Origin: Candidatus Latescibacterota bacterium
GTDB taxonomy: Bacteria > Latescibacterota > UBA2968 > GCA-2709665
Reading direction: 5' to 3'
Length of the DNA stretch: 64,000 nucleotides
NCBI GenBank assembly: GCA_965248435.1
Contig: OZ252100.1
Location: forward strand, 2,528,001 to 2,592,000
This document shows positions 55,460 to 59,262 of the stretch, piece after piece. The stretch's first letter is position 1. Every line of letters starts with the position of its first letter. The notes under the pieces are model-generated. The model was not told where the DNA came from, searched no databases, and worked only from the letters and a program-made list of their open reading frames with translations. Both the position numbers and the translations under genes were made by a program.

Positions 55460-56521
55460 TCATCTGCCAAGTTGCTCGAGCATCCACGGAATAGACTTCC
55501 TGCCATTGAACATGTGTCCCCCCTTGTAGCGATGAAGTCGCAAACGTTTTTCGACACCCAGAAAGCCATATGCCTTTTTCGTCAATGAATAGGCCGGCTC
55601 GTGTGGGTAGCGCGCATCGCTCACTCCGGATTCCACGAACTGAGGGCGGGGCGCAATGAGTGCGGAAAGATCGGGAAGATCACAGACGAGGCCGATACCA
55701 AAGGGATGATGACAAATACAATGGCCGTGCCACGCAGTCTGAAGGAAAGTCGTGAAGAAGCCGCTGAGGATAACCGCCTTGATTCGCCTGTCGAGAGCCG
55801 TGAGAACCTGAGACAGCCAGCACCCGCCAGATAACCCCGCACAACCGATGCGCCCTGCATCGACTTCGGGACGTTGGGCCAGAAGATTGATGCCTGCCAT
55901 CAGCTCAAACACGCGGAAACCGGTCAAGTCAAGTCCCATCTGATTCAACCTCGCCCACGTCAGGAAACACCCTGAGACGGGTAGATGTCCTTTCTGATTC
56001 TTTCCGAGACCGCGTTCACCCATCCCCGCATTGTCCGGTGCGAGAGCAACCAGACCGCGCCTGGCGAATTCATGCGCATAGGCCACACCCTTCGGGCGGG
56101 CTATGCCCACCACATTCTCTTTGGCGCCTTCAACGTGGCCGTGAGGACAGATCACAGCAGGTCCTTGCTCCCTGCCATCGGGGATCAGCAGATATGCGCT
56201 CACCCAATCGCCCGGCAAGACCTCGTAGGCCAGCTTCTCGCGCCGATAGCCTTCGCATTGCACGGTTTCCAGCACAAGCGATGTTGGCGTTGGTACGGTG
56301 CCGAGGCGATCCAGGCATAGCGTCCTGCGCAAGGCGCGACGCAGCTTCCTGCGCCAGCGTTGCCATTGACCCGCATCTGAAGTCTCCGGATAGGCGAGTT
56401 TCCGATCAAACCTGAAGAATCTCTGGTTCAGATATGATGGTGTACTGGGATCTTCCGGACCCGTTGACCGTTCGGGATCGACCAGTCTCGAACCTGTTTG
56501 CGTTACTCTCCGAATAATCAC
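55460..56521 (-). CDS. alpha/beta hydrolase (dienelactone hydrolase-like); true start probably downstream of 56521
   Basis: PAVICPHGH, PDNAGMGER, nucleophile GLSGG, LIAPRP, GGHMF. Confidence 0.85.
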   Translation of the reverse strand: MIIRRVTQTGSRLVDPERSTGPEDPSTPSYLNQRFFRFDRKLAYPETSDAGQWQRWRRKLRRALRRTLCLDRLGTVPTPTSLVLETVQCEGYRREKLAYEVLPGDWVSAYLLIPDGREQGPAVICPHGHVEGAKENVVGIARPKGVAYAHEFARRGLVALAPDNAGMGERGLGKNQKGHLPVSGCFLTWARLNQMGLDLTGFRVFELMAGINLLAQRPEVDAGRIGCAGLSGGCWLSQVLTALDRRIKAVILSGFFTTFLQTAWHGHCICHHPFGIGLVCDLPDLSALIAPRPQFVESGVSDARYPHEPAYSLTKKAYGFLGVEKRLRLHRYKGGHMFNGRKSIPWMLEQLGR

Positions 56522-56522
56522 C

Positions 56523-56623
56523 CCTATAGCCCGGTGAACTGTGTGGGCGGAACCTATTGTACTGCCGTCGCCACACCTCGGTCAACACCTTTGCCTCCGC
56601 AGCGTCGTGAAGAATTCACCGTC
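56523..56623 (-). mobile_element. IS3-family transposase C-terminal remnant
   Basis: GEFFTTL / EAKVLTEVWRRQYNRFRPHSSPGYR with a frameshift; matches the YNxxRPHSSLGY integrase-core tail. Confidence 0.75.
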
Positions 56624-56678: not shown

Positions 56679-56713
56679 ACAACGGGTTACAGCAATTGCC
56701 TGTAACCCGTTGT
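56679..56713 (-). terminator. hairpin just downstream of the tRNA 3' fragment
   Basis: acaacgggttacag-caattgc-ctgtaacccgttgt perfect 14-bp stem. Confidence 0.65.
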
Positions 56714-56719
56714 CATTTT

Positions 56720-56760
56720 TGGTCGGGGCGGCGGGATTTGAACCCACGACCCCCTGCTCC
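56720..56760 (-). tRNA. 3' half of a tRNA-Pro gene (att-like fragment, not a full tRNA)
   Basis: Minus strand GGAGCAGGGGGTCGTGGGTTCAAATCCCGCCGCCCCGACCA: anticodon 3' stem, T-arm GTTCAAATC, acceptor 3' strand ending GACCA; upstream sequence gives no D-arm or 5' acceptor strand. Confidence 0.85.
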
Positions 56761-56771
56761 TAAATAGGAGG

Positions 56772-57431
56772 TCAGTTTGCCAAAAGGCTCCTAAACTCAG
56801 ATGGGCTGGCAGACTGCCTCACCCTGAGCCACTCAAGACTTGGCAGGGACAGATCGATATGACATAGCCTACTTCGCCGCAAGGGGCGAAACCAGAACGC
56901 GATTGTAGGCTGCACTGGTGGCAATAGAACGCCATCCCCTTGGGTCAAACTTCGCACGAGCATGCCCATCGGATAACGAAACCGGCCTACCATCCACCGG
57001 CAAATCGGGTTGGCAGCTTTCAGATGCGCCACTTCGTATCGCACCAGATCCACGACCCACGGCGGCTCAATACCCTCTCCAAGAACGACGTGTTTAACAA
57101 AGGCACAGAAAGCAAAAGCATCCTCTTGGTGTTTCTTCATCCCCTTCGGAACATAGGTAACGGCATATCGCCAGAAAAGCTTTACAAACCCCTCACCCAA
57201 CACGCGATGCGTGAGCGGCAGCAGTTTACAGACTTCGTTCAGCCGTTTCCGCCGCAGGGAATTAGCGAAGAAATTGACCTGCGGCGCGGCCAGTTGAGCA
57301 AGCTGCTGTTCCTCATCAGAACTCAGTTCTAAAGCGCGGCCTACCGCTTGAGGATCGGCAAAGAAACGATCTCGAAAGGAAGCATCCGTATAAAGCTTGG
57401 TCATGACTCGCTGTATCTGCGCTAACCCCAT
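56772..57431 (-). CDS. putative MNIO partner protein
   Basis: LYTDASFRDRFFADP, LRRKRLNEV..LLPLT..LG, WVVDLVRYE resemble DUF692-adjacent partner proteins; ATG overlaps the corrected DUF692 stop. Confidence 0.65.
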   Translation of the reverse strand: MGLAQIQRVMTKLYTDASFRDRFFADPQAVGRALELSSDEEQQLAQLAAPQVNFFANSLRRKRLNEVCKLLPLTHRVLGEGFVKLFWRYAVTYVPKGMKKHQEDAFAFCAFVKHVVLGEGIEPPWVVDLVRYEVAHLKAANPICRWMVGRFRYPMGMLVRSLTQGDGVLLPPVQPTIAFWFRPLRRSRLCHIDLSLPSLEWLRVRQSASPSEFRSLLAN

Positions 57432-58263
57432 CGTTCGTGCGCCTTCCCTATGCAGCGCGCCATTTCCAATTCCTTCAGCAATTCTTCAAACGGCGGCAGG
57501 TTCTCATCCCGCTCCAGCACGACCCCTTTCACAGGCGTGGTGGCAACGACCGCATCCATCAGTGTCCACGCCTCGGACGGTGCCGCTGCGAATGGCTATC
57601 AACGAGCACACCTTCATGCCAATGCCCTCCTGCGAAATGAAGCTGCACGATGCGCTCCAATGGCAATTGCTCCAGAAAGATAGAAGGGTCATAGCCGTGG
57701 TTGACAGCGTTGGTGTGCAGGTTCGTGACGTCTAACAACAGGCCGCAATCTGTCTGCTGCAGCACTTCATTCAAAAACTGCGATTCGCTCATCTCTCCGC
57801 CAGGCATGTTCACCACGTAGGTGATATTCTCTAAAATCAGTGGTTTCTCAATCCGATTTCGCACTTGTGCGATGTTGCGACAGAGTACCTTAACCGCCTC
57901 GCGCGTAAAAGGAAGCTGAGAGAGATGCCCGATGTCGATCCCGCCTGCCCTGGTAAAGGCGATGTGTTCGCTCCACCAAGGGGGGTTTAGACGCCGAACA
58001 AGCCCCGCCAGCTTGTCCAGGTATTCGTTATCTACTCCCTCGGCGCTTCCCAGGGATAGATTAATGGAGTGTGGAATGAGAGTGAAATGCTCTGCGAGCA
58101 AATCCAGCTCTTGCTCTTTCTCAGGCGGTGCGTCGATGTAGTGATCAGCCGTAATTTCGAGAAAATCAACCTCCGGCCGGTGTAAAAAAAGGTCGCTTCG
58201 GAACGGTTCCCTAAATCCCAGCCCTACACCTAGTGTCGGCAGATGTGAAAGTAGATCTTTCAT
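57422..58263 (-). CDS. DUF692 multinuclear non-heme iron oxidative enzyme (MNIO), 1-nt frameshift near 57585
   Basis: GVGLGFR, FLEI, PHSINLSLGS, SEHIAF, LENI, LLLDVTNL, LHFAGG, DSHS; the shifted frame continues PSEAWTL...VVLERDENLPP...RWG*. Confidence 0.9.
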
Positions 58264-58267
58264 GTTC

Positions 58268-59152
58268 TCACCCTCCTCCACAGCCGCCACAGCCGCCTCC
58301 ACACGATCCTTCACTCCCTGTGGACTTGTGAAACATTCTTTGGTAGTACTCGTAGGGAGTTCCAGCAAGCACTCCGACGCCGAAGAGCCCTAGAGTCAGC
58401 AACAGGGTCGGACCCGCTGCAGTTTTGGTGGCCGCAAGAGCCCTCTCTTTCAGCCCTTCGAACGCCAACTGGAGCTTTTGCAAATAAGCCCGTCCTCTAC
58501 TGCTGAGACGGGGCGTCTCGCAGATACTGAACAGAATTCCAAGCGAAAAAAGACCCAAAAGGACGAGGCCTAATTTGGACTGACCCTTCATTAAAGCGAA
58601 TAACAGCTTGTATCCCCCCAGGCCCACGATGACGATCGCGCCTTTAAGCCTTATCTGCTGAGCCGCTTCCTGCACTTCGGCAGGCATCAGCAGTTGCTCC
58701 TCTTCAAGTCTCTGGTCGAAGGACGCGTAGTGATACTTGATTTCGGATGGCAGCTCTGATTGGAAAATCTCCTCCGAAGCAAGACGGTTGTGGAACCAAT
58801 CGAAAACTTCGCGCTCCATTTGAGACAGATGGCGAGTGTGAGGATGGTCTGGGACCTGTTCTATTCGCTCATTCGACTCCTCCGTCACACGTAGGTAGCC
58901 TCGTTGAAGCAGGTTGAAGATAGCGACTCGTGCCACCTCACTCTCTTCGCCACGCAAATAGGCAGTTTCGTAGGGATTCGGGGTCCTAGTGGGAACTTTC
59001 AGCGGAGGCAGCGACGCCGTTGGGTCAGACTGGCGTAACCTCCACCAACAGGCCGCCAGCGTGAAAACGATGACGATCGCGTAAAAGAAGAAAAAGTGAG
59101 GCCCATACATATCGGCAATAGGGTTTTGCATAAGCCAATCCACTATCATCAC
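58268..59152 (-). CDS. TIGR04222-like membrane protein with Gly/Cys-rich C-terminal tail
   Basis: MYGPHFFFFY, PYETAYLRG, GGYKL, LSSRGRAYL, three to four hydrophobic segments, tail STGSEGSCGGGCGGCGGG. Confidence 0.85.
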   Translation of the reverse strand: MMIVDWLMQNPIADMYGPHFFFFYAIVIVFTLAACWWRLRQSDPTASLPPLKVPTRTPNPYETAYLRGEESEVARVAIFNLLQRGYLRVTEESNERIEQVPDHPHTRHLSQMEREVFDWFHNRLASEEIFQSELPSEIKYHYASFDQRLEEEQLLMPAEVQEAAQQIRLKGAIVIVGLGGYKLLFALMKGQSKLGLVLLGLFSLGILFSICETPRLSSRGRAYLQKLQLAFEGLKERALAATKTAAGPTLLLTLGLFGVGVLAGTPYEYYQRMFHKSTGSEGSCGGGCGGCGGG

Positions 59153-59262
59153 CTCCTAGAGCCGGTCAAAAATGCTGGCCGCTTGTCCAACTGTTGACAT
59201 TAAAGCATTGTAGTGAGCTCTGCAGCGTCAGGCGTGTGATCTCCTGACTTCAGGGTCTTGGA

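Follow-up and report, generated by a model that had tools for sequence, protein, structure and literature searches.

A decayed TIGR04222/MNIO/PME-type 2 operon in Candidatus Latescibacterota and the conserved Cys/Gly tail of its membrane protein

Background

Membrane proteins of the TIGR04222 family that end in a Cys-containing tail were proposed as substrates of MNIO (DUF692) enzymes in a 2025 survey in Microbial Genomics (PMC12452194). Here we describe a locus of this kind in a 64,000-nucleotide stretch of the genome of Candidatus Latescibacterota bacterium (contig OZ252100.1, positions 2,528,001 to 2,592,000; hereafter the window, to which coordinates refer unless stated otherwise). At 56772-59152 on the minus strand, a TIGR04222 membrane protein gene, an MNIO gene and a gene for a partner protein lie side by side in the same orientation. 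This locus is a decayed new member of a known, experimentally open operon type.

According to the survey's passages on these proteins, more than 1,000 Cys-containing proteins without a signal peptide are encoded before MNIO genes, and 40% of them belong to TIGR04222, i.e., are multi-pass membrane proteins with Ser/Gly-rich, Cys-interspersed C-termini that are predicted to face the periplasm (PMC12452194). The associated MNIOs are close to the bufferin and oxazolin enzymes, and the authors consider subsets of TIGR04222 proteins likely MNIO substrates, the modification and its role remaining, according to them, to be investigated (PMC12452194). Besides the survey and its preprint, the family name occurs a single time in a 2016 Pseudonocardia genome paper. 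That the tail is a substrate is not a new idea, as the published hypothesis already includes the partner class and the periplasmic tail.

Among the described systems with which the operon can be compared, the bufferins comprise BufA precursors, the MNIO BufB and the DUF2063 partner BufC, and Buf1 is reported to chelate copper through Cys-derived thiooxazoles (PMC12452194); the titles of recent papers support the view that bufferin-type MNIOs and the Haemophilus enzyme yield 5-thiooxazole. In the HvfB/oxazolin systems, the precursors (Buf_EGKCG) have Sec signal peptides and the partners are of PME-type 1 (PMC12452194). In the 3-thiaglutamate pathway of Pseudomonas syringae (TglHI), TglI is the partner of the MNIO TglH (PMC12452194).

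Gene order and translational coupling of the operon

The membrane protein gene (58268..59152, minus strand) was defined from the list of open reading frames (ORFs), a match to NCBIfam TIGR04222, hydropathy and an AlphaFold2 model. In the MNIO gene, frame A (57559..58263, minus strand), recognized by its PF05114 match, comprises 234 codons followed by TGA, and the C-terminal remainder lies in frame B (57422..57582, minus strand), as identified from translations, PF05114 and alignment to relatives. The partner gene (56772..57431, minus strand) encodes 219 amino acids and was identified from its ORF, AlphaFold2, Foldseek and synteny.

These are the three components, in the same order, of the TIGR04222/MNIO/PME-type 2 clusters in PMC12452194. 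Further points in common with these clusters are a multi-pass membrane protein that has no signal peptide and ends in a Cys-rich, low-complexity C-terminus, a bufferin/oxazolin-like MNIO, a partner related to NGO1945 and TglI by structure only, and a predicted periplasmic location of the tail. The window operon differs from the published clusters in that its MNIO gene is frameshifted. Moreover, the window protein belongs to a subfamily of approximately 300 amino acids with an invariant CGG(G)CGGCG motif and a 10-nt junction between the MNIO and partner genes, neither of which appears in the survey's passages on these clusters, and its supplementary tables may list the subfamily. The survey also describes large periplasmic domains, whereas charge would place the domain of about 135 amino acids of the window subfamily in the cytoplasm.

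The stop codon of the membrane protein gene (TGA, 58268-58270) is separated by a 4-nt spacer (58264-58267) from the MNIO start codon (ATG, 58261-58263), and the final three Gly codons of the membrane protein, GGAGGAGGG (58271..58279, minus strand), constitute the Shine-Dalgarno sequence of the MNIO gene, with GGAGG placed 8 nt before the ATG. Downstream, the partner start codon (ATG, 57429-57431) and the frame-corrected MNIO stop codon (TAG, 57422-57424) share the 10-nt string ATGGGGTTAG (57422..57431, minus strand), a junction that suggests translational coupling of MNIO and partner. Translational coupling of the three genes is counted among the points shown here.

The original prediction for this DNA, which had been made from the sequence, described three co-oriented and tightly coupled genes with the last Gly codons forming the ribosome-binding site of a DUF692 gene 4 nt downstream, and the arrangement described above bears out both statements. 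It also had the corrected DUF692 stop overlapping the partner ATG; this stands in so far as both lie within the same 10-nt string, but the stop begins 4 nt past the ATG and the two codons themselves do not overlap. As it had further reported, neither a small precursor nor a protease or exporter is found near the operon, where the neighbors are a TctB-like gene, TctA, a TctC-sized gene without a Pfam match, a Ser/Thr kinase, an ECF sigma factor and an Iso_dh gene.

The membrane protein and its Cys/Gly tail

The membrane protein has 294 amino acids when read from the GTG at 59152, and 291 in the public gene call, which starts at the GTG at 59143. Its match to NCBIfam TIGR04222 spans the whole profile (positions 1-229 of 229; 112.1 bits against a curated cut-off of 43 bits; E 3.1e-32), in agreement with the family named in the original prediction. 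Hydropathy shows four hydrophobic segments, with a soluble domain of about 135 amino acids between segments 1 and 2. The AlphaFold2 model has a confidence score (pLDDT) of 89.6, with residues 279-291 below 50 and the tail disordered; a Foldseek search of this model against the PDB gave no significant match (best hit Vps74, E 0.35).

The protein terminates in ...SEGSCGGGCGGCGGG. Its tail, SCGGGCGGCGGG (codons at 58271..58306, minus strand), is the putative modification site and holds 3 Cys, which places it among the shortest in the family. A protein search yielded 132 homologues, the best non-self match being 58% identical. Almost all of the matches listed (120) terminate in ...CGG(G)(G)CGGCG(G), and mostly 4-8 Cys are present in the last 40 residues. 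In an alignment of 34 of the 120 sequences, the sole invariant run is G283 G284 C285 G286 G287 C288 G289 at the extreme C-terminus, and the terminal C-G-G-(G)-C-G-G-C-G motif is invariant in both this alignment and a smaller one with 12 rows. By this comparison, the tail is the only conserved Cys-rich candidate substrate. A complex prediction with the intact MNIO of the closest relative (L020), its partner and membrane-protein residues 212-305 gave a score of 0.01, which speaks neither for nor against binding.

The orientation of the tail was assessed from the mean number of Lys plus Arg residues in 108 homologues (P0001-P0111 except for P0041, P0096 and P0105, which are short; P0112-P0120, being distant, were left out). 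This number was 0.39 for the N-terminus, 6.86 for the 35-residue loop before the last hydrophobic segment and 1.76 for the tail of about 50 residues. By the positive-inside rule, which is a rule of thumb, the N-terminus and the tail would lie outside, i.e., in the periplasm, and the domain of about 135 amino acids and the Lys/Arg-rich loop would be cytoplasmic. The original prediction had required a cytoplasmic tail, and on this point it does not agree with the charge distribution. Modification is not refuted by a periplasmic tail, since the substrates of cytoplasmic MNIOs include the bufferin precursors, which are exported through Sec (PMC12452194).

A single-base deletion in the MNIO gene

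Frame A of the MNIO gene matched Pfam PF05114 (MbnB_TglH_ChrH) with 249.5 bits over profile positions 1-216 of 263 (gathering threshold 25 bits), consistent with the DUF692 assignment of the original prediction, and the frame-B piece added a further 22.8 bits over positions 227-260. Frame A (57562-58263 plus TGA) ends in ...VDSHSQRHRPRRGH before its stop, the last 8 residues (RHRPRRGH) being out of frame, and the MNIO domain resumes in frame B as ...APSEAWTLMDAVV...LERDENLPPF...ERWG up to the TAG at 57422-57424. In 12 intact relatives, DSH[SA]-x is followed by four residues and then by E-[VIAG]-W; the window reads DSHSQ-[CG]-APS-EAW over the two frames. As two bases thus stand in place of a codon, a single base was deleted at about 57583-57585 (minus strand), directly after ...VDSHSQ. 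The original prediction had implied that the DUF692 frame needs correcting, and the two-frame alignment to relatives locates the frameshift.

W233 and E251-R252-D253, which are invariant in an alignment of 24 intact MNIOs, are all encoded downstream of the break; the window gene does not provide the single uninterrupted frame, including the C-terminal ERD motif, that we expect of a functional enzyme. For comparison, 59 relatives have an MNIO, and in 55 of them it is at least 265 amino acids long. We judge the enzyme of this genome to be probably inactive, and because its gene is broken by the 1-nt deletion, the tail is probably unmodified in this organism.

The premature TGA of the MNIO gene overlaps an in-frame frame-B ATG (MDAVV; TGATG, 57557-57561), an arrangement resembling re-initiation that a conserved Leu-Met produces by chance. 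A split enzyme produced by re-initiation at TGATG, with a C-terminal piece of 45 amino acids, was judged unlikely, as the invariant Trp between the two pieces would still be lost. Programmed -1 frameshifting was rejected, as no slippery heptamer is present at the site. Signs of decay were also observed in other relatives, i.e., MNIO fragments of 74-76 amino acids in L026 and L055 and membrane protein genes split across frames in L054, L061 and L072.

Among NCBIfam models, the best match of the MNIO was to the equivalog BufB (NF050167; 198.7 bits, below the cut-off of 310), followed by the equivalog HvfB (NF003818; 175.8 bits, below the cut-off of 360). The MNIOs of three intact relatives reached 237-254 bits for BufB and 215-223 bits for HvfB, also below both cut-offs. 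By these scores, the MNIO is nearest to the BufB/HvfB maturases. The operon shares with the bufferins a BufB-like MNIO and, as proposed here, a Cys target and a cytoplasmic enzyme with a periplasm-bound product. It differs from them in that the MNIO stays below the BufB equivalog cut-off, the partner lacks a Pfam DUF2063 signature, and the candidate substrate is a four-segment membrane protein without a cleavable Sec signal, whose product would remain tethered. The modified Cys of the oxazolin precursors precedes Gly (EGKCG), as does every Cys of the window's tail.

A partner protein related to TglI by predicted fold

No Pfam family matched the partner at E up to 0.01, so that it lacks the DUF2063 signature which, together with a RiPP recognition element (RiPP, peptide made by the ribosome and modified after translation), characterizes PME-type 1. 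Its AlphaFold2 model (pLDDT 91.8; alignment of 27 of the 56 sequences) retrieved TglI (8hi7_A) as the first Foldseek match (E 7.1e-6, probability 1.00, TMq 0.64, 226 aligned columns) and NGO1945 (3dee) as the fourth (probability 0.98). PME-type 2 partners are defined in the survey as being encoded after the MNIO gene, as lacking a DUF2063 signature and as structurally related to NGO1945 and TglI (PMC12452194). By its position and its predicted fold, the partner conforms to this definition and is a DUF2063-like protein of PME-type 2. Likeness to the TglHI system lies in this fold; sequence identity to TglI is only 13%, and no TglH model was among the NCBIfam matches of the MNIO, which does match the Pfam family covering TglH. 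TglH excises the Cys beta-carbon on a small peptide, i.e., it performs a different chemistry on a different kind of substrate.

When the partner profile was compared with PDB sequences, only weak N-terminal matches were obtained (nitrile hydratase alpha, LigA/SonA; E 0.018-1). Partner residues 5-58 (57259-57419) matched NCBIfam NF038399 (Os1348/NHLP) with 40.8 bits (cut-off 40), and the Os1348 structure 6lk7 was found by Foldseek with a probability of 0.99. These sequence and model matches hint that NHLP-type leaders and the N-termini of MNIO partners share a fold. In one Chthonomonadaceae locus (L017:7947-9893), the partner homologue constitutes the N-terminus of a 649-amino-acid ORF, possibly a fusion with another domain.

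Conservation of the three genes across genomes

Species-representative genomes were scanned with the 12-row alignment of the membrane protein, the 34-row alignment being too diverse for search patterns, and the stop-to-stop ORFs of the 79 loci obtained were searched with the window's proteins. An MNIO gene was present downstream on the same strand in 59 of the 79 loci, and the partner gene as well in 56; seven loci end at a contig edge within about 2 kb. This recurrence of gene order, as judged from sequence comparison, exceeds what chance would produce, and the co-occurrence expected from the original prediction was thus found. Going by record titles, the full trio was present in nine phyla, i.e., Cyanobacteriota (mostly Nostocales), Acidobacteriota, Armatimonadota, Latescibacterota, Planctomycetota, Actinomycetota, Chloroflexota, Bacteroidota and Pseudomonadota. 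The junction pattern ATGGGNTTAG between the MNIO and partner genes occurred in 43 of the 56 trio loci (in 22 of them as the identical string), and the gap between the membrane protein and MNIO genes was at most 25 nt in 32 of 59 loci.

When ORFs of at least 100 amino acids were clustered, only the membrane protein, MNIO and partner families recurred beyond Nostocales, and clustering of 1,946 small ORFs (20-99 amino acids) around the 56 operons gave no cluster outside Nostocales. A separate conserved precursor, which would have spoken against the tail as substrate, was not among these ORFs, and by this comparison the trio is the only core conserved across phyla. Two full-size TIGR04222 genes were present in nine loci (L008, L009, L016, L019, L035, L036, L040, L048 and L065). 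In the eight cyanobacterial loci among these, the tandem copies lie upstream of a single MNIO-partner pair, while L065 has no MNIO nearby. Tandem copies of the membrane protein gene resemble a frequent behavior of precursor genes and would support a substrate role.

Proposed mechanism and alternative explanations

Taken together, we regard it as somewhat probable that, in operons of the TIGR04222/BufB-like MNIO/PME-type 2 type, the enzyme-partner pair modifies the membrane-protein tail to build a tethered periplasmic metal site, and that the window holds a broken, acquired copy of such an operon. A cytoplasmic MNIO-partner pair would oxidize the Cys residues of the tail to Cys-derived heterocycles, most likely 5-thiooxazoles by analogy with bufferins. 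This modification would precede membrane insertion of the last hydrophobic segment, as bufferin precursors are modified before Sec export (PMC12452194). The last segment, following the Lys/Arg-rich loop, would then act as an uncleaved signal anchor and bring the tail out to the periplasmic side, where the tail would stay tethered as a metal-binding, probably copper-binding, site. We offer only tentatively the more specific proposal that, in the intact relatives, modification occurs before insertion, the Lys/Arg-rich loop and last segment serve as recognition element and uncleaved export signal, and the product is a tethered array of metal-binding heterocycles. In the genome studied here, the deletion truncates the MNIO before the invariant W and ERD residues, and the tail would probably be bare. 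The central claim of the original prediction, i.e., that the tail is the MNIO substrate, gains comparative support from the invariant motif, the lack of a small precursor and the tandem copies; it had already been published, and the enzyme is broken in this genome.

Several observations weigh against this reading. No published modification of any TIGR04222 protein was found in the literature searched, which was partly covered through titles and abstract openings, and the proposed heterocycle is of a kind extrapolated from those characterized families that are nearest. The positive-inside rule is the single basis of the topology, and with about 17 residues the last hydrophobic segment is short. 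With respect to acquisition, no integrase-like ORF of at least 90 amino acids was found in the part of the repeat-bounded interval described below that spans about L005 7,100-11,800, the rest of the interval being the operon and the Tct genes. The association with MNIOs is also loose, as one third of the complete genomes with TIGR04222 have no MNIO (490 of 1372; PMC12452194), and 13 of our 79 loci lack an MNIO gene despite at least 3.6 kb of downstream sequence. Ten of these 13 retain the Cys motif, the reading frame being split or the tail end not recovered in the remaining three. Five of the 13 genomes were searched, and three show no MNIO anywhere (completeness not given) and two have one elsewhere. 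Such Cys-tailed homologues in loci and genomes without MNIO indicate that the tail can persist without the enzyme. They also favor, together with the intact membrane protein and partner genes beside the broken MNIO gene, what we see as the main alternative: the Cys/Gly tail would work unmodified, in thiolate metal binding or redox, with the MNIO-partner pair being facultative or acting elsewhere, and the membrane protein of this genome would still be functional. However, the 4-nt gap, the Shine-Dalgarno sequence within the tail codons and the position of the MNIO directly downstream in 59 of 79 loci point to a functional link; in the genome of L085, whose locus lacks an MNIO, an MNIO-partner pair is simply located elsewhere, with no membrane protein gene within 1.4 kb, and the three genomes without an MNIO match may be incomplete. 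We consider an unmodified tail unlikely.

A lower probability still is given to the membrane protein being an accessory component (a scaffold, an exporter-like part or a sensor that uses its winged-helix-like cytoplasmic domain), with the true precursor being a small peptide that was missed or whose gene lies elsewhere. Unlike classical RiPP precursors, the protein is large and folded (pLDDT 89.6), and the complex prediction, being uninformative on tail binding, gives no direct support for binding. This role is difficult to reconcile with the Cys motif at the very end as the protein's only invariant stretch, the lack of a small-ORF cluster beyond Nostocales in the 56 loci, the tandem paralogues in nine loci, and the intergenic distances within the operon, which amount to 4 nt and an overlap. 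It is similarly improbable that the MNIO is intact in the living organism and that the frameshift arose as an artefact of the assembly or the reads, or reflects a minority allele that the assembly has fixed. The contigs of four public runs, assembled separately with a word depth of 15-44, agree letter for letter with the window (0 differences and 0 gaps over 56731-59200), and since the same letters recur in all four assemblies, the deletion stems from the reads themselves and not from a slip in the consensus. The break site is not a long homopolymer, and decay is seen in other relatives too (the MNIO fragments and split membrane protein genes given above). On the other hand, the genome is a 2-contig assembly, the remainder of the operon shows no damage, and run contigs drop rare variants; all four runs come from one sample and may be the assembly's own data, so that the deletion is reproduced rather than independently confirmed, which also counts against the reading that we prefer.

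Modification of the tail in the intact relatives would mean that the chemistry of MNIOs reaches beyond small secreted peptides to integral membrane proteins, and bacteria would gain a tethered metal-binding site at the membrane surface; a RiPP-type modification would then serve to make a protein cofactor and not a natural product that is released. Operons of this type are widespread, being found in nine phyla with many loci from cultured Nostoc and Calothrix strains. With its broken enzyme gene, the window copy is ill suited as a point of departure; what it would contribute is an indication that the operon travels as accessory DNA and undergoes decay, and that the membrane protein can persist after its enzyme is lost.

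Genomic context of the operon

The genome carries one MNIO locus and one TIGR04222 gene, and no homologue of the membrane protein was found in the 40 relatives compared, which belong to its genus, family or order. In a phylum sample of 168 genomes, three passed the TIGR04222 cut-off; G000 and G054, the latter appearing to be the same contig as L020, were the only ones in which the MNIO match was strong (E under 1e-70).

A 43-bp perfect direct repeat of the 3' end of tRNA-Pro(TGG), identified by blastn and ARAGORN, lies at 56718..56760 (no strand assigned) and forms the distal boundary of the interval that contains the operon. The second copy is located about 2.8 kb past the window's end (C1:2594817-2594859), at an intact tRNA-Pro(TGG) gene approximately 10.1 kb away. 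The tRNA-Pro repeat pattern occurs once in the window, with 0 occurrences expected by chance. The operon stands at the far end of this 10.1-kb interval, which also holds the Tct genes and the Ser/Thr kinase, ECF sigma factor and Iso_dh genes and in which G+C is 0.515-0.555, as compared to mostly 0.54-0.64 elsewhere in the window. The run contigs, of 10,116 bases, start at 56731, within the repeat. The interval looks like an old site-specific insertion, judging from the repeats, although its status as a mobile element is not proven. Because the operon lies in the interval bounded by the tRNA-Pro repeats and was not found in the 40 relatives, it looks like acquired accessory DNA in early decay. 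DNA synteny of the left flank was compared in five relatives, and the only match was one of 215 bp at 78% in one of them; these relatives are too distant for an empty-site test.

A hairpin with a 14-bp stem (56679-56713) adjoins the tRNA fragment and may be the terminator of the displaced tRNA gene. Just outside the repeat, a 60-amino-acid ORF (56409-56588, minus strand) resembles a C-terminal remnant of a transposase/integrase core (Pfam rve_3, E 4.5e-5, below the cut-off). A second fragment similar to the tRNA-Pro 3' end (97% over 39 nt) lies at C1:784738-784776, where ARAGORN predicts no tRNA, and may be a relic attachment site.

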